Shown here: piece by piece, positions 17,386 to 62,869 of the stretch
Numbering within the stretch: position 1 is the stretch's first letter
Layout of the letters: each line of letters opens with the position of its first letter
IMG/VR virus record: IMGVR_UViG_3300020469_000011
Coordinates: 82,511 to 146,510 of that record
From: a virus
Length of the DNA stretch: 64,000 bases
Reading direction: 5' to 3' (one strand)
Notes under the pieces: model-generated
The model's database searches: none
What the model was told of the DNA's origin: nothing
Seen by the model: only the letters and a program-made list of their open reading frames with translations
Translations under genes and position numbers: made by a program

Positions 17386-17897
17386 CCACTCAACATTGTA
17401 TCTTAAATTCAAATAATAAATTTGTTGATGTTGTAAGTGAAGAAGATTCTTCACAATACACAACAGTTTTAGCTATACCCCCAACTTTAAAAGAAAATTT
17501 TGAAGCTACTTGGGATGATGGTACATGGATAGTAAGAAGAATACGTGCAAATACTACTCAAGAAATATCTAATATAGAATATACTGAAGACAATAAAATT
17601 GAAAACACTTTTTATAATCATACTACCGTTCAATACTTGGAAGAGCAACTGAATATATTGCGTGTAAAAATGGCAATTGATTATGAAAAAAATGGTGAAG
17701 TCTTAAAAAAACATACTGATTATGAAAACGTATTAAATAGTTACATTGAAACATGTTCTAATGTTGTTTTAAAAGAAGAAGATATCTATATTGAAGAAGA
17801 GTTTCCTGATCCAGAAGATGAACAAAAAACGGTAATTAATAAAATTTTAAATTATAAAAATTATTTTAGAAACCTTGAGGATTTAGCAGATTTTTAA
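17382..17897 (+). CDS. Tail fibre assembly-associated protein
   Basis: T...PP.......A.WDDGTW motif; adjacent to the fibre genes. Confidence 0.5.
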   Translation: MTTQHCILNSNNKFVDVVSEEDSSQYTTVLAIPPTLKENFEATWDDGTWIVRRIRANTTQEISNIEYTEDNKIENTFYNHTTVQYLEEQLNILRVKMAIDYEKNGEVLKKHTDYENVLNSYIETCSNVVLKEEDIYIEEEFPDPEDEQKTVINKILNYKNYFRNLEDLADF

Positions 17898-17898
17898 C

Positions 17899-17927
17899 TT
17901 GACTTTTTTATCTGTATCTGTTATACT
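17899..17927 (+). promoter_or_regulatory. sigma70-type promoter for the hsp20/tRNA region
   Basis: TTGACT-17nt-TATACT with extended -10 TG; a late-type CTAAATA follows at 17942. Confidence 0.7.
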
Positions 17928-17982
17928 AACGTAAAAGTCAACTAAATAGTTTTGAGGAAGTAAAGATGCTTTCTCATTATAA

Positions 17983-18061
17983 GCAGTCGCTCATTTTGAG
18001 GTCTGCGATATATAGCAACGCACGTTGCTTAATATTACTCGCTTAATAAGGAGGCTATATG
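17983..18061 (+). promoter_or_regulatory. ROSE-like RNA thermometer in the hsp20 5' UTR
   Basis: Three hairpins; the last pairs CUC(G)CUU with AAGGAG (SD) leaving a bulged G; UCGCU matches the ROSE U(U/C)GCU motif. Confidence 0.75.
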
Positions 18062-18544
18062 TTTCTTACACGTTATTCAAGTAACGACTGGGATAAAATT
18101 TTTAGACATTCTGTAGATTTGTTTGATCGAATGGAAATGATTCTTGATGATCAACAGTTCTCAAATTCGTTATCACATACGTTTCCCCCTCATAATATAC
18201 GCAAAAAAGATAATTCTTATCTAATTGAAATGGCTGTTGCTGGTTTCAATAAAGACGAAATTGATATTTTTAAGGAAAAGAATCATCTTGTCATTGAGGG
18301 TAAAAAGGAAGAAAAGAATGAAGAAGGTTTTGTGTATCGTGGAATTGCAAATCGTTCTTTTAAGAAATCATTTGCTCTAAGTGAGGACATGAAAGTTCTT
18401 GCTGCAGATATGAGAGATGGTATGTTGTATGTTGGTCTAGAACATGAAATTCCAGAAAAAGATAAACCTCAAAAAATTGTTATTGGTGACCGTGCTGACA
18501 CTATGTCTTCTGTAATTAATAGTGTTAAAAAATTAGTCGCTTAA
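18059..18544 (+). CDS. hsp20: Small heat shock protein (Hsp20/IbpA family)
   Basis: FPPHNI......YLIEMAVAGF....I; YRGIA.RSF.K.F.L; A.MRDGML...LE..IPE..KP.KI.I. Confidence 0.95.
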   Translation: MFLTRYSSNDWDKIFRHSVDLFDRMEMILDDQQFSNSLSHTFPPHNIRKKDNSYLIEMAVAGFNKDEIDIFKEKNHLVIEGKKEEKNEEGFVYRGIANRSFKKSFALSEDMKVLAADMRDGMLYVGLEHEIPEKDKPQKIVIGDRADTMSSVINSVKKLVA

Positions 18545-18554
18545 TATAAAGTAT

Positions 18555-18576
18555 GGTGGTTGTGAAAGCAGCCACC
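18555..18576 (+). terminator. GAAA-tetraloop hairpin between hsp20 and the tRNA (terminator or processing/stability element)
   Basis: GGTGGTTGT-GAAA-GCAGCCACC; no clear U-tract. Confidence 0.45.
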
Positions 18577-18587
18577 TATATATAAAA

Positions 18588-18663
18588 GCGAGAATAGCTC
18601 AATAAGGCAGAGTACAGTCTTACCAAGATTGTGGTGCAGGTTCAATTCCTGCTTCTCGCTCCA
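18588..18663 (+). tRNA. tRNA-Gly, anticodon ACC
   Basis: Acceptor GCGAGAA/TTCTCGC, U73, encoded CCA; D-stem GCTC/GAGT; anticodon arm CAGTC-TTACCAA-GATTG; T-arm GCAGG-TTCAATT-CCTGC. Confidence 0.9.
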
Positions 18664-18690
18664 AACACATCATACACACAGGAGAATTAA

Positions 18691-18990
18691 ATGCAACCAT
18701 ACCCAATCCATCAACATTTTTATACCGCTCGGCGAGATTCTGAGCTTGTTAGGTATTTTAAAAATGAATATCGTTATGATTGGGAATTAAATTATGTTAA
18801 TTTCATGGAACGTGCGAAATCAGAAAAGTACAGTAAAACATTTAAAATATTGGTAAAAAAGTTTAAATTAATTATGAAAATCATGTTTGGTAATTATTCT
18901 GAAGAATACTTATTGAAAGTTAATGAAAAACAAATTTTTAAAGATTTATATGATTCTGAAAGAAAACAAAATTACCCTAGTTATGCGTAA
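18691..18990 (+). CDS. Hypothetical protein
   Basis: 99 aa; SD AGGAG preceded by a CA-rich leader. Confidence 0.7.
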   Translation: MQPYPIHQHFYTARRDSELVRYFKNEYRYDWELNYVNFMERAKSEKYSKTFKILVKKFKLIMKIMFGNYSEEYLLKVNEKQIFKDLYDSERKQNYPSYA

Positions 18991-19029
18991 ATTTAAATTG
19001 AACACACACATCACACAAAAGAGAGCATC

Positions 19030-19308
19030 ATGACAGATAGCAAAAATCCATTTCAGATCAGACAAGAACTTTTAAACACCGCAAAAGAATATGTTGAATC
19101 AATGTACAATATGCAACAATCTGCTATCGAAAGGCAATTTCATTTAGCTGAAGAAGTAATGAAGAAAAATGAAGAGCAGGGTATGAAAATGTTTCAACAG
19201 ACTACAGAAAATTTAGAAAAATACTGTAAGTCATATCCAGGAGTAGACCAAATTCTTACTGTTGCTAAACAATTTCAAGACTTTGTAGATAATAAAGATA
19301 AAAAATAA
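19030..19308 (+). CDS. Conserved T4-like phage hypothetical protein
   Basis: KNPFQIR.ELL..AKEY...YP....IL..A..F..FV pattern; CA-rich leader. Confidence 0.7.
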   Translation: MTDSKNPFQIRQELLNTAKEYVESMYNMQQSAIERQFHLAEEVMKKNEEQGMKMFQQTTENLEKYCKSYPGVDQILTVAKQFQDFVDNKDKK

Positions 19309-19327
19309 TTACATTAATAGGATTTTT

Positions 19328-19399
19328 ATGGTAGTTGATTTATTGTTTATAGGATTCGTTGCATTTTTTGTTACAGTCCTCTGGTCTAAAAAAATATGA
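19328..19399 (+). CDS. 23-aa single-transmembrane peptide (not in the ORF track)
   Basis: MVVDLLFIGFVAFFVTVLWSKKI; AGGA upstream. Confidence 0.45.
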   Translation: MVVDLLFIGFVAFFVTVLWSKKI

Positions 19400-19410
19400 C
19401 CTAATATACT

Positions 19411-19450: not shown

Positions 19451-20029
19451 ATGTTATATATTGGTATTGATTTTTCCATTAGTAGTCCTTGTGTTTGCTT
19501 TTGGGATACAAAAAAACAGCATTTATTTGAAAATTGCGAATTCTTTTTTCTACACTCAAAACCTAGCATTTCAAAAATAAATTTTCCTTCAAATATTTTT
19601 TATTCAGAATCTTCTGGATCAAAAGATAATTCCGTTCGCTTTTCGGAAAATGCAAAACTATTATCAACTGAAATTAAAAAAAGACTTGACATTTATAAAA
19701 AATCTGTTATAATGTTGGAAGGTTATTCTATGGGAGCAAAGGGAAGACTTTTTGACATAGGAGAAGCAACCGGAATTTTAAAATTATTTTTATCGTATGA
19801 AAATATTAAACCTATTATTATTGCACCAACTCAAATCAAAAAAATAGCAACTGGCAAAGGAAACGCAAATAAATTTAAAATGCTTGAAAGATTTTTTGAA
19901 ATAAATACTAGTTTACACAATTCAGATTGGACACAAGTTTTAATAACAGAAAAGCACATACAACCACCATTGACGGATATTGTAGATAGTTTTTTTATTT
20001 CTAACTCATTTACGGTAACATATGATTAA
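19451..20029 (+). CDS. RuvC-like Holliday junction resolvase
   Basis: YIGIDFSISSP; LEGYSMG; IGE.TGILK; P..IKK.ATGKGNA.K; DIVDSFF. Confidence 0.85.
   Translation: MLYIGIDFSISSPCVCFWDTKKQHLFENCEFFFLHSKPSISKINFPSNIFYSESSGSKDNSVRFSENAKLLSTEIKKRLDIYKKSVIMLEGYSMGAKGRLFDIGEATGILKLFLSYENIKPIIIAPTQIKKIATGKGNANKFKMLERFFEINTSLHNSDWTQVLITEKHIQPPLTDIVDSFFISNSFTVTYD
19686..19713 (+). promoter_or_regulatory. Internal sigma70-type promoter inside the resolvase gene
   Basis: TTGACA-16nt-TATAAT with extended -10 TG, upstream of thyX. Confidence 0.65.
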
Positions 20030-20897
20030 AGCTAAAATTGTTCAGGATAGTTCTTTACCTACTGGAGAAAGAGTTTTGACTTTCTCTGCAATGTATGGTA
20101 GATTAATTCATTCTGAACTTCTTAGACACCGTGCTGCATCTCATTCAGTGAAAAGTTCTCGAGCGATACCCACTAAAAAATATCGAGAAGAAGTTAAACA
20201 AAACATTTATGTCCCAGTTAAATTTGGCACAAAAAAGAGAGGAATGCAAGCAGGTGAACCTACCTTTTTAAGTAAATTTTATGGAGAAAGAGTATGGAGA
20301 CTTTCTTCAAAATTTGCATGTTTGTTCCATTGGATGATGGAAAAATTAGATATACATAAGGAAGTAGCTAATCGTATTTTAGAACCATATGTGTGGGTTG
20401 AAGAAACAATTACTGTTGAAGCTGATGCTTTAAAAGAAATAGCCGAACTTAGAATTCATGATGATGCACAAGAAGATGTTCGTAAAATCGTTGAAGAAAT
20501 GTTATATGAAATGGATAAAAGCACACCTGTTAAATTAAAAGAAGGACAATGGCATGTTCCTTATGTTGTGAGAAAAATTACAGATAATGGGATAATATAT
20601 ACAGATAATAATGGCAAAAATTTAACATTGGATGAGGCTATTGTTTGCTCTGCTGCTAGATCCGCTAGAAGTTCTTACGCTAATCATGATAATAGTATGT
20701 CTGTACTTGAAAAGGATATTAAACTTGCTAAACAATTAATTGGTTCTAAACCAATGCACTTGTCACCGTTTGAACATCAAGCAAGACCATTTAAAGATGA
20801 TCTTGAAAAGAATCAATATGGTTCTAATCTTCGTCATTTCTTTCAGCAAAGAAAGGCAATTGAAAATTCATTATGGCACTACGAAATCAATTCATGA
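20022..20897 (+). CDS. thyX: Flavin-dependent thymidylate synthase (ThyX/Thy1-like)
   Basis: ELLRHRAASHSVKSSRAIP (RHR-x7-S-x-R); HKEVANRILEP; LR.H.DAQ; H.SPFEHQA. Confidence 0.82.
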   Translation: MIKAKIVQDSSLPTGERVLTFSAMYGRLIHSELLRHRAASHSVKSSRAIPTKKYREEVKQNIYVPVKFGTKKRGMQAGEPTFLSKFYGERVWRLSSKFACLFHWMMEKLDIHKEVANRILEPYVWVEETITVEADALKEIAELRIHDDAQEDVRKIVEEMLYEMDKSTPVKLKEGQWHVPYVVRKITDNGIIYTDNNGKNLTLDEAIVCSAARSARSSYANHDNSMSVLEKDIKLAKQLIGSKPMHLSPFEHQARPFKDDLEKNQYGSNLRHFFQQRKAIENSLWHYEINS

Positions 20898-22618: not shown

Positions 22619-22695
22619 GGGCCTCTAGCTCAATAGGTTAGAGCACCGCACTCATAATGCGTAGGTTCTCGGTTCAAGTCCGAGGGGGCCCACCA
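22619..22695 (+). tRNA. tRNA-Ile2 (CAT anticodon, lysidine type)
   Basis: Acceptor GGGCCTC/GGGGCCC, A73, CCA; loop CTCATAA; C4-G69 and C5-G68 TilS determinants; no initiator features. Confidence 0.8.
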
Positions 22696-22732: not shown

Positions 22733-24463
22733 ATGAATAAATTACTTATCTTTGACTATGGAAGTCAGTATACACATTTGATTTCCAAGAGATTTAGAAA
22801 ACTTGGTTACTACACTGAAATATGTCAACCCGATATAGATTTACAATTAATATCTGCTAACGGTATTATTTTATCTGGAGGTCCTGGAAGTACAAATGCA
22901 AATAATGATTTAAATACTAATATATTTGATTTGAATATTCCAATATTAGGTATATGTTATGGTCATCAGTTAATAGCTTCCTACTTCAAAGGCACAGTAA
23001 AATCAAATACTAATGTGGAATTTGGAAAAGCAAACCTAACAAAATGTGAAGATAGTCTTCTTTTTAAAAGATTACCAAATACATTTCAAGTTTGGATGAG
23101 TCATCATGATACTATAACTTCTTTACCTGAGCAGTTTAAAGTTATAGGTAAAACAGAAACTCCTTCTGCAATTGAGCATAAACATAAAAAGATCTATTCA
23201 TTACAATTTCATCCAGAAGTTAATGATACAAACTTTGGTTCAATAATATTAGATAATTTTGCCAAAATATGTAACATTGAAAATAATTGGAATACTAAAA
23301 ACTTTACTGAATCTAGTATTAAAAATATTAAAGAAGAAGTAAAAGACCGTAATGTACTCATGTTTCTGAGTGGAGGTGTAGATTCTAGTGTTGCATTTTC
23401 TTTACTCAACGAGTCTCTGGGGTCTGAACGTGTATTAGGTCTTTTTATAGATAACGGATTTTTAAGAACAAATGAAGCTAAAATAATTTTAGAAAAATAC
23501 AATTCTTTAGGTTATGATAATATAATATTTCGTGACTATAGTATTAAATTTTTAGAAGCTATAAAAAATATTACAGACCCAGAAGAGAAGCGCAAGTCTG
23601 TAGGAGAAACTTTTCTAAAAGTTAGAGAAGAATTTTTAGATGAATTAAATTTAAATACTGATGATTGGTTATTGGGACAAGGTACTTTATATCCAGATAT
23701 TATTGAATCGGGTGGTTCAAAAAATTCACATGTGATCAAATCACATCACAACAGAGTAGATGCTGTAAAAAAATATATTGATAAAGGTTTGATAATTGAA
23801 CCGCTAAAGGAATTATATAAAGATGAAGTTCGTATTCTTGGAGCTTTATTAGGACTCCCAAAACAAATAGTACAAAGACATCCATTTCCAGGTCCAGGTC
23901 TTTCCATTAATGTAATTTGTTCTGATTCAATTTCTGAACAAACTAGTGAATTTTTACCAATAAAAAGTGTTGGTGTGCAAGGTGATCAAAGAACTTATAA
24001 ATCTCCAAAGGTCATTCATAATAAAGCTGATTGGGATACATTAGAAAAATTAAGTATTGAACATACTAATAAGGTAGATGGGAGCAATAGAGTTGTTTTA
24101 CATTTATCTAAAAGTGAAATTAAACATAATGGTTGGATTAGAAAAATTGCGTATTGCACAGAAGAAAGATTAAATATTCTCAGAAAAGCAGAAACTATAG
24201 TCTCTGAGAGTCTAGAAAAAAATAATTGGATGATAAAACTTTTTCAAGTATTAGTTATTCTTTTACCAATTAGTGAAAATGGGAAAAAAGAAAGTATTGT
24301 GATAAGACCAGTGGTATCAGAAGATGTGATGACTGCACAATTTGCTAAAATTGATTGGGATGTCATAGAAGAAATTGTAGATAAATTGTATAAGATGCCG
24401 AATATAGATTCGGTCTTTTATGATATTACACATAAACCTCCAGCGACTTTTGGGTGGGAATAA
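22733..24463 (+). CDS. guaA: GMP synthase (glutamine-hydrolysing)
   Basis: DYGSQY, ILSGGP, LGICYGHQ, QFHPEV, LSGGVDS, QGTLYPD.IES, IKSHHN, RHPFPGPGL, KPPAT..WE. Confidence 0.95.
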   Translation: MNKLLIFDYGSQYTHLISKRFRKLGYYTEICQPDIDLQLISANGIILSGGPGSTNANNDLNTNIFDLNIPILGICYGHQLIASYFKGTVKSNTNVEFGKANLTKCEDSLLFKRLPNTFQVWMSHHDTITSLPEQFKVIGKTETPSAIEHKHKKIYSLQFHPEVNDTNFGSIILDNFAKICNIENNWNTKNFTESSIKNIKEEVKDRNVLMFLSGGVDSSVAFSLLNESLGSERVLGLFIDNGFLRTNEAKIILEKYNSLGYDNIIFRDYSIKFLEAIKNITDPEEKRKSVGETFLKVREEFLDELNLNTDDWLLGQGTLYPDIIESGGSKNSHVIKSHHNRVDAVKKYIDKGLIIEPLKELYKDEVRILGALLGLPKQIVQRHPFPGPGLSINVICSDSISEQTSEFLPIKSVGVQGDQRTYKSPKVIHNKADWDTLEKLSIEHTNKVDGSNRVVLHLSKSEIKHNGWIRKIAYCTEERLNILRKAETIVSESLEKNNWMIKLFQVLVILLPISENGKKESIVIRPVVSEDVMTAQFAKIDWDVIEEIVDKLYKMPNIDSVFYDITHKPPATFGWE

Positions 24464-62426: not shown

Positions 62427-62585
62427 ATGAAAAGAAGAAGAGGTAGAAAAGCTTCAAAAAGAACAGTTAGATGTACTATTTGTACTACTCATCGTTGGTT
62501 AGGAAACAATGAAGGTAGGTGGAATATCAACACAAAGAAAAAACATTACGCTACAAAAGAGCAGTTAAAAGAATTTACTTGTTGA
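62427..62585 (+). CDS. 52-aa very basic CxxC peptide (not in the ORF track)
   Basis: MKRRRGRKASKRTVRCTICTTHRWLGNNEGRW...; SD AAGGA. Confidence 0.6.
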   Translation: MKRRRGRKASKRTVRCTICTTHRWLGNNEGRWNINTKKKHYATKEQLKEFTC

Positions 62586-62835
62586 CCTGAAAAGATAATC
62601 GCTACGGACCCGAGTTGCGATACTCGGCGGCTCCACCAAGATAGCATTTTACGAAGTGCTATGTTAGGGGCCGAATAGATTCGACGTGGGATGAAAATAT
62701 CAGAGAGAGTAGATAGGGTGATGACCAACATCAAACCTTATAGTCGCAAACAACAATGACTATGCACCTGTACTTGCCGCAATAGCAGCATAATACAGCG
62801 GGGATTAGGGTTGTTCCTTGTTACTAAAACAACCC
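62586..62835 (+). ncRNA. ssrA: Circularly permuted (two-piece) tmRNA; tag ANNNDYAPVLAAIAA
   Basis: 3' acceptor half GGAC-CCGAG..CTCGG-CGGCTCC-ACCA ends at 62638, before the 5' half GGGGCCG-AATAGATTCGAC at 62667; G3:U70 pair; resume codon GCA at 62746 to TAA at 62793; outer boundaries approximate. Confidence 0.9.
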
Positions 62836-62869
62836 AATTAATTATTAACCCGTGTCTATTAAAGGAGAT

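Follow-up and report, generated by a model that had tools for sequence, protein, structure and literature searches.

Our analysis revealed that the genome of an uncultured marine T4-like phage carries a genuine and intact glycine tRNA gene of the bacterial GCC type in which the wobble base is an A, so that the anticodon reads ACC, a species that is very rare in cells and recurrent in phages. The gene lies in a window (the whole stretch of 64,000 nucleotides that was analysed) that corresponds to the last 64 kb of the 146.5-kb IMG/VR record. As a phage tRNA it belongs to a familiar kind; its ACC anticodon is, as far as could be found, apparently unreported in nature. We consider it probable that this tRNA works in translation, i.e. 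that it is charged by the host, keeps an unmodified A34 and reads GGU codons, and that it is an accessory gene of its lineage.

ARAGORN called two tRNAs in the window, one of which is this tRNA-Gly(acc) (Table 1). Its score with the Rfam model RF00005 is 58.6 bits for a gathering score of 29 (E = 4.4e-10), and its strand folds far better than shuffled versions of the same sequence. Read from the sequence, the acceptor stem has 7 bp (G1-C72, C2-G71, G3-C70, A-U, G-C, A-U and A-U) and is followed by the discriminator U73 and an encoded CCA; the anticodon stem has 5 bp and closes the 7-nt loop UUACCAA; the variable loop has 4 nt and the T-loop is UUCAAUU. The tertiary elements U8-A14, G18G19 and the Levitt pair A15-U48 are all present. 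In bacteria, the set of identity elements recognized by glycyl-tRNA synthetase comprises G1-C72, C2-G71, G3-C70, U73, C35 and C36, and the window tRNA has this full set. Its sole oddity is the A at position 34 (18622 in the window). The preliminary description of this DNA, made from the sequence alone, had proposed a canonical cloverleaf with glycine identity elements and an ACC anticodon, and both programs as well as the direct reading of the sequence bear it out.

Table 1. Positions in the 64-kb window of the tRNA-Gly(ACC) gene, of its elements and of its neighbours.
Feature	Position	Strand	Evidence
tRNA-Gly(ACC), 76 nt, CCA encoded	18588..18663	+	ARAGORN; RF00005 58.6 bits; sequence; folding z-score -3.9
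Anticodon ACC (A34 C35 C36)	18622..18624	+	ARAGORN and sequence; unchanged in four runs from four studies
7-nt anticodon loop UUACCAA	18620-18626	+	Read from the sequence
Strain difference G>A, standard position 29	18617	+	Runs X7 and X9; G29·U41 becomes A-U in the anticodon stem
Hsp20 small heat-shock protein gene, upstream neighbour	18059..18544	+	phrog_432, E = 1.4e-35
8-bp hairpin 3' of the Hsp20 stop codon, no T-run behind it	18555..18576	+	Sequence
99-aa ORF, downstream neighbour (AGGAG at 18680-18684)	18691..18990	+	ORF call; leader common with the relative L006

The A at 18622 is real. Twenty public runs, from 13 studies, contain at least part of the region, and four of them were compared through their assembled contigs (Logan), a comparison of assemblies and not of raw reads, in which minor variants are invisible. 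The contigs of two runs from separate studies, X2 (2014) and X3 (2020), span positions 17800-19400 without any difference from the window and have A at 18622. An assembly error that would hide a GCC or TCC anticodon, the check asked for by the preliminary description, is ruled out by these identical and independent contigs. The two other runs correspond to variant strains that diverge from the window by 1.6-2.6%, with 25 (X7) and 41 (X9) differences in 1601 bases; in both, the tRNA gene is ungapped and ACC persists. All 25 differences of X7 are known and only the G>A at 18617 falls inside the tRNA; the same change is the only one inside the tRNA among the 25 of the 41 differences listed for X9. 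It should be emphasized that this conservation between strains is a weak argument, since about two changes are expected per 76 nt at the divergence of X9 and at least one is seen. Several RNA-seq runs also share sequence words with the region, from which no claim about expression is drawn.

The record that carries the gene has a GC content of 29.6% and is about 68% complete according to CheckV, about a third of the genome being missing. ARAGORN found five tRNAs in the whole record (Asn GUU, Asp GUC, Arg UCU, Gly ACC and Met CAU). The tRNA-Gly(ACC) gene is flanked by the Hsp20 gene and by the 99-aa ORF, which has no match in Pfam or PHROG and whose leader (AACACA..ACACACAGGAG) is common to the relative L006. 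Further downstream come genes for a RuvC-like resolvase, a thymidylate synthase, the tRNA annotated as Met (CAU), a GMP synthase and the gp43 DNA polymerase. This polymerase is only 42% identical to those of cyanophages and 37% identical to that of the Pelagibacter phage HTVC008M, which points to a divergent marine T4-like phage without any close cultured relative. Among these neighbours, the thymidylate synthase gene (phrog_85; 20022-20897, + strand) and the gene for a full GMP synthase with GATase and GMP_synt_C domains (22733-24463, + strand) lie near the tRNA genes, and the CAU tRNA (22619-22695, + strand; Rfam 67.4 bits) could be an initiator, an elongator Met or a lysidine-type Ile tRNA.

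A scan for sigma-70 promoters and terminators around the tRNA gene gave nothing above chance. The hairpin located between the Hsp20 stop codon and the tRNA gene, which L006 has at the equivalent place, lacks a T-run and does not look like a canonical terminator, so that the tRNA is probably co-transcribed with its neighbours and cut out of a longer transcript.

L006 is the nearest available relative (78% identity of Hsp20). According to a pairwise alignment with cheap gap extension and to reading by eye, it has the same layout of Hsp20 gene, hairpin, leader and ORF as the window and no tRNA. The same gene order without the tRNA indicates that the gene is specific to the lineage of the source phage, and tRNA-Gly(ACC) thus appears to be a dispensable accessory gene. 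A single relative does not distinguish a gain in the source lineage from a loss in L006. A search of JGI metagenomes with Hsp20 retrieved only distant relatives (35-40% identity) without any tRNA nearby, which are uninformative on ancestry, and the 1.3 kb surrounding the tRNA had no megablast match among 50,697 phage records. The preliminary description had counted a lack of ACC in relatives against its own reading: L006 does lack the gene as a whole, but the close strains described above and several unrelated phages carry ACC.

The absence of the gene from L006 and the lack of any promoter-like site above chance nearby could also suggest a silent or decaying gene, i.e. a captured tRNA-Gly(GCC) hit by a disabling mutation of its wobble base and now being lost. 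We regard this as highly improbable, since all structural and identity elements are intact, the four assemblies, each from a different study, all retain ACC, the only change seen between strains restores a Watson-Crick pair, and tRNAs with an ACC anticodon were active in translation when tested (PMC4928997, PMC11066159). A lineage-specific accessory gene would likewise fit an arms race in which the phage tRNA replaces a host tRNA-Gly destroyed by an anticodon nuclease, A34 making the phage copy uncleavable. Escape from tRNA-targeting defences has indeed been both proposed and demonstrated for phage tRNAs with altered anticodon loops (PMC10264068; PMC11555353). This evasion of host defences, also raised in the preliminary description, is nevertheless very improbable here: the loop is that of an ordinary tRNA-Gly(GCC) except at position 34, the surroundings of the tRNA contain no nuclease-related genes, and our literature search gave no antiphage nuclease specific for glycine tRNAs.

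The likely relationships of the tRNA itself lie with ordinary bacterial glycine tRNAs. A blastn search with the tRNA alone detected generic tRNA similarity only (about 72% along the whole tRNA, or 90% with phi92-type tRNA-Gly when the 3' third alone is aligned). Exact scans of IMG/VR for its 3' half, whatever the anticodon, gave no match, i.e. no other record of the lineage is found there, and three alphaproteobacterial MAGs searched with the tRNA gave no match either. Among the 1248 tRNAs of the fetched phage loci, the best matches to the window tRNA are almost all glycine tRNAs. In 401 sampled alphaproteobacterial genomes, the best full-length matches are two tRNA-Gly(GCC) genes, with 75% and 73% identity; the sample includes one unpublished genome (G243), on which none of the conclusions depends. 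These genes, from genomes G268 and G386, share with the window tRNA an identical acceptor stem, a near-identical D-arm and U73, and their anticodon loops are the same as its own except at position 34 (and also at position 38 in G268). The window tRNA differs from them by being phage-encoded, by its A34 instead of G34, by the sequences of its anticodon stem and T-stem and by its variable loop of 4 nt. Overall, the window gene looks like an alphaproteobacterial glycine tRNA of the GCC type whose G34 has become A.

The rarity of ACC was assessed with a pattern that combines the anticodon loop with its closing pair and the T-arm, the identical pattern being applied to all sets. In 185,579 species genomes (596 Gb), it gave 97 matches, only 14 of which are acc tRNAs according to ARAGORN, and several of these 14 have non-glycine or mispaired acceptor stems. 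The statement of the preliminary description that tRNA-Gly(ACC) is essentially absent from cellular genomes is thus confirmed on a large scale. It also agrees with a review which holds that no organism has tRNA-Gly(ACC) and that the 'prohibited' species are absent from phage tRNAs as well (PMC8007984), and an unsuitability of A34 for tRNA-Gly's anticodon loop has been proposed as one reason for this absence (PMC4928997). Our full-text literature search for tRNA-Gly(ACC) found no paper describing a natural phage example. A few of the cellular contigs carry an intact-looking tRNA-Gly(acc) in the company of other tRNA genes, such as L239 (1431-1505), with 18 tRNAs in an 8-kb locus, and L152 (4837-4908), a contig of Clostridium sp., where the gene lies among five tRNAs. 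These arrays may be prophages or mobile tRNA arrays.

The same pattern gave 12 matches in IMG/VR, five of which are tRNA-Gly(acc) according to ARAGORN. All five are located in multi-tRNA clusters and two of them are accompanied by a tRNA-Gly(UCC). With GCC in place of ACC, the pattern gave at least 120 matches; the fetched loci contain five ACC for 112 GCC tRNAs, figures from which no more than a maximum for the ratio follows. In a second scan, restricted to matches with the T-stem of the window tRNA itself, two further phage contigs came up, L245 and L247, so that tRNA-Gly(acc) is confirmed in seven other IMG/VR phage contigs, most of them AT-rich and GGT-rich. L245 and L247 are related contigs of 42 and 52 kb, with 29% GC and a replication module that includes a family-A polymerase. 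In both, the tRNA-Gly(acc) gene (2093-2168, + strand, in L245; 6621-6696, - strand, in L247) is solitary, with a gp32-like gene on one side and a clamp-loader-like gene on the other. It is nearly the same as the window tRNA in the acceptor and T arms, which suggests either a shared host-type ancestor or a transfer between unrelated AT-rich phages.

Another example was found in a cultured phage. In HTVC008M (NC_020484.1), ARAGORN calls a tRNA-Gly(acc) at 91140-91213 on the + strand (1501-1574 of the fetched locus L242), which is also the sole Rfam tRNA match there (49.5 bits). It is flanked by the CobS and ribosomal protein S21 genes and located about 750 bp upstream of the Hsp20 gene. The RefSeq annotation of HTVC008M has no tRNA feature in the stretch around these positions and the number of tRNAs of this phage is given as 0 in Table 1 of PMC7029224; published phage annotations therefore undercount ACC tRNAs. 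HTVC008M and the window phage are both marine AT-rich T4-like phages; their tRNAs both have the ACC-containing loop UUACCAA, acceptor ends GCG..CGC, U73 and the same T-stem, and both lie less than 1 kb from an Hsp20 gene. However, the two phages are only distantly related according to the gp43 identity given above, and the HTVC008M tRNA is only about 53% identical to that of the window, departs from the canonical form in its T-loop (AGCGUUA) and in its D-loop, which lacks GG, and occupies the CobS-S21 position.

Codon usage was examined in 132 ORFs (43,322 codons). Among their 2341 glycine codons, GGT ranks first (1102, i.e. 47%), followed by GGA (1007, 43%), GGC (170, 7%) and GGG (62, 3%), with a GGT:GGC ratio of 6.5:1; GGT is thus very common, as previously noticed from the sequence. 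It is also the top glycine codon in all four of the other ACC loci that have enough codons (shares of 0.73, 0.57, 0.66 and 0.35, compared to 0.47 for the window). In the 95 loci retrieved with the GCC pattern, the median share of GGT is 0.36 and GGT ranks first in 46. This association of ACC with AT-rich and GGT-rich phages is suggestive, being based on five loci and confounded by low GC content and mutation bias. Furthermore, L006 reaches an equal share of GGT (46%) without the tRNA. Therefore, codon usage reflects AT bias and not co-adaptation to the tRNA, and the gene appears to be dispensable.

The adaptation to GGU codons put forward in the preliminary description is consequently only partly sustained: it fits best, with GGT as the top codon here and at all four other loci, but AT mutation pressure would also account for this pattern, and L006 has the same GGT share without the tRNA. 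The same data allow a near-neutral origin, in which the tRNA works like a GCC tRNA as a reader of GGU and GGC, and G34 was changed to A and fixed by AT pressure under relaxed constraint, without selection for GGU reading. The low GC content of the record and of the other ACC phage loci (29-44%), the GGT share of L006 and the observation that ACC in Escherichia coli barely discriminates GGU from GGC (PMC11066159) are in favour of this origin. We nevertheless hold it to be rather unlikely, as the near-absence of ACC from the cellular genomes taken together argues that the change is not neutral in cells, and its repeated occurrence beside a UCC tRNA in multi-tRNA clusters suggests retention.

In the reading that we favour, namely a translating tRNA with an unmodified A34 that reads GGU, the host glycyl-tRNA synthetase would charge tRNA-Gly(ACC), because the identity elements are intact and position 34 is not one of them. 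Published data are consistent with this step: position 34 is irrelevant to glycyl-tRNA synthetase, an E. coli tRNA-Gly(ACC) mutant is functional in elongation, and the human enzyme charges both ACC and ICC variants (PMC4928997). A34 would most likely stay unmodified, and on the ribosome it would pair with GGU in Watson-Crick fashion (A:U), GGC and GGG being read less efficiently. The tRNA would thereby supplement the host tRNAs, for which G:U wobble is the only way to read GGU. A loose reading by A34 would cost no fidelity, since all four GGN codons specify glycine, and the phage would be free of the cellular need for a single tRNA reading both GGU and GGC, since the host supplies the other glycine tRNAs.

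Laboratory tRNAs provide the closest functional parallels. The engineered E. coli tRNA-Gly(ACC) (Boren et al. 1993, as reported in PMC4928997 and PMC11066159) and the orthogonal tRNA(ACC) of Schmitt et al. 2024 resemble the window tRNA in presenting A34, C35 and C36 in a bacterial tRNA context. Within what these two articles relate, such tRNAs are chargeable, active and unmodified in E. coli, and read GGU best. More precisely, the glycine tRNA mutant is a strong reader of GGU and a weak one of GGC, and it also competes on GGA and GGG; in living E. coli, an ACC anticodon escapes deamination, decodes GGU with a slight advantage over GGC, and decodes GGG too (PMC11066159). However, these engineered tRNAs are laboratory mutants, whereas that of the window is a natural gene kept in a phage population. 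A natural parallel in cells is the Mycoplasma tRNA-Thr(AGU), which like the window tRNA has A34, serves a four-codon box and comes from an AT-rich genome; unmodified A34 of this type reads U best, and some C and G (PMC11066159). It differs by its amino acid and by being a cellular tRNA that replaces a G34 tRNA, whereas that of the window is added to the host set. Among phages, T4-type tRNA-Gly(UCC) and other codon-compensating tRNAs are comparable, as the window phage is also T4-like and has few tRNAs, which serve heavily used codons (Arg UCU for AGA, Asn, Asp, Met and Gly). However, the T4-type tRNA-Gly has a UCC anticodon, whereas ACC would target GGU and not GGA or GGG.

The usual substrate of the deaminase TadA is the anticodon loop of E. 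coli tRNA-Arg2, with G36 and a C32, A37 and A38 context. The UUACCAA loop differs from it only at positions 32 and 36, where the window tRNA has U32 and C36. Inosine editing was among the options of the preliminary description; in this reading, the host TadA would deaminate A34 and a single tRNA with an ICC anticodon would read GGU, GGC and GGA, which together make up 2279 of the 2341 glycine codons (97%). Such an inosine decoder would be the first natural ICC glycine anticodon and would imply that tRNA-Arg is not the only substrate of TadA in a marine host. Published E. coli data make it quite unlikely, since only ANG anticodons (ACG, AUG and AAG) are modified, ACC is not, and changes at positions 32, 37 or 38 blocked TadA (PMC11066159). 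Moreover, human ADAT modifies tRNA-Gly(ACC) poorly (PMC4928997), and the 146.5-kb record contains no deaminase gene.

No deaminase, Mom or GNAT gene was found beside the tRNA or elsewhere in the 146.5-kb record (no match to PF25680 for Mom or PF00583 for GNAT), this record being about 68% complete; a gene for a partner of the tRNA may be located in the portion of the genome that the record lacks. This missing third leaves some room for a role outside translation, in which the tRNA would carry glycine to a Mom-type or other aminoacyl-tRNA transferase, for instance for DNA modification, as Mom makes N6-carbamoylmethyl-dA from Gly-tRNA-Gly (PMC13219725). We deem such a carrier extremely unlikely: the neighbouring genes encode no such domains, the body of the tRNA is fully canonical and not deformed (G18G19 in the D-loop, UUCAAUU T-loop, 7-nt anticodon loop), and Mom accepts all glycine isoacceptors of the host and needs no private tRNA (PMC13219725).

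Taken as a whole, natural and intact ACC genes kept in phage populations indicate that the ban on tRNA-Gly(ACC) is not absolute. They also point to a cause other than the proposed unsuitability of A34: a cell needs one tRNA that reads both GGU and GGC, whereas for a phage, which merely supplements the full set of its host, a tRNA specialized in GGU is affordable, which makes sense of the rarity of ACC in cells. As HTVC008M, which was grown on a cultured SAR11 strain, also has an ACC tRNA, the state of A34, the range of GGN codons read and the payoff for the phage are directly testable.

This work also revealed other tRNAs with A34 in the IMG/VR loci. Leaving out two calls with unclear anticodons, nine of the 1248 tRNAs of the fetched phage loci are non-Arg A34 tRNAs. 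They come from loci L007-L143 and comprise Leu AAG (n = 2), Ser ACU (n = 2), Cys ACA (n = 2), Pro AGG (n = 1), Ser AGA (n = 1) and Thr AGU (n = 1); some of them may be miscalls. Finally, the window contains at 62525-62838 (+ strand) a two-piece, circularly permuted tmRNA, which ARAGORN does not call and which matches the Rfam models tmRNA_permuted (88.7 bits) and alpha_tmRNA (67.2 bits). Such a gene hints at a host with a permuted tmRNA, for instance an alphaproteobacterium.
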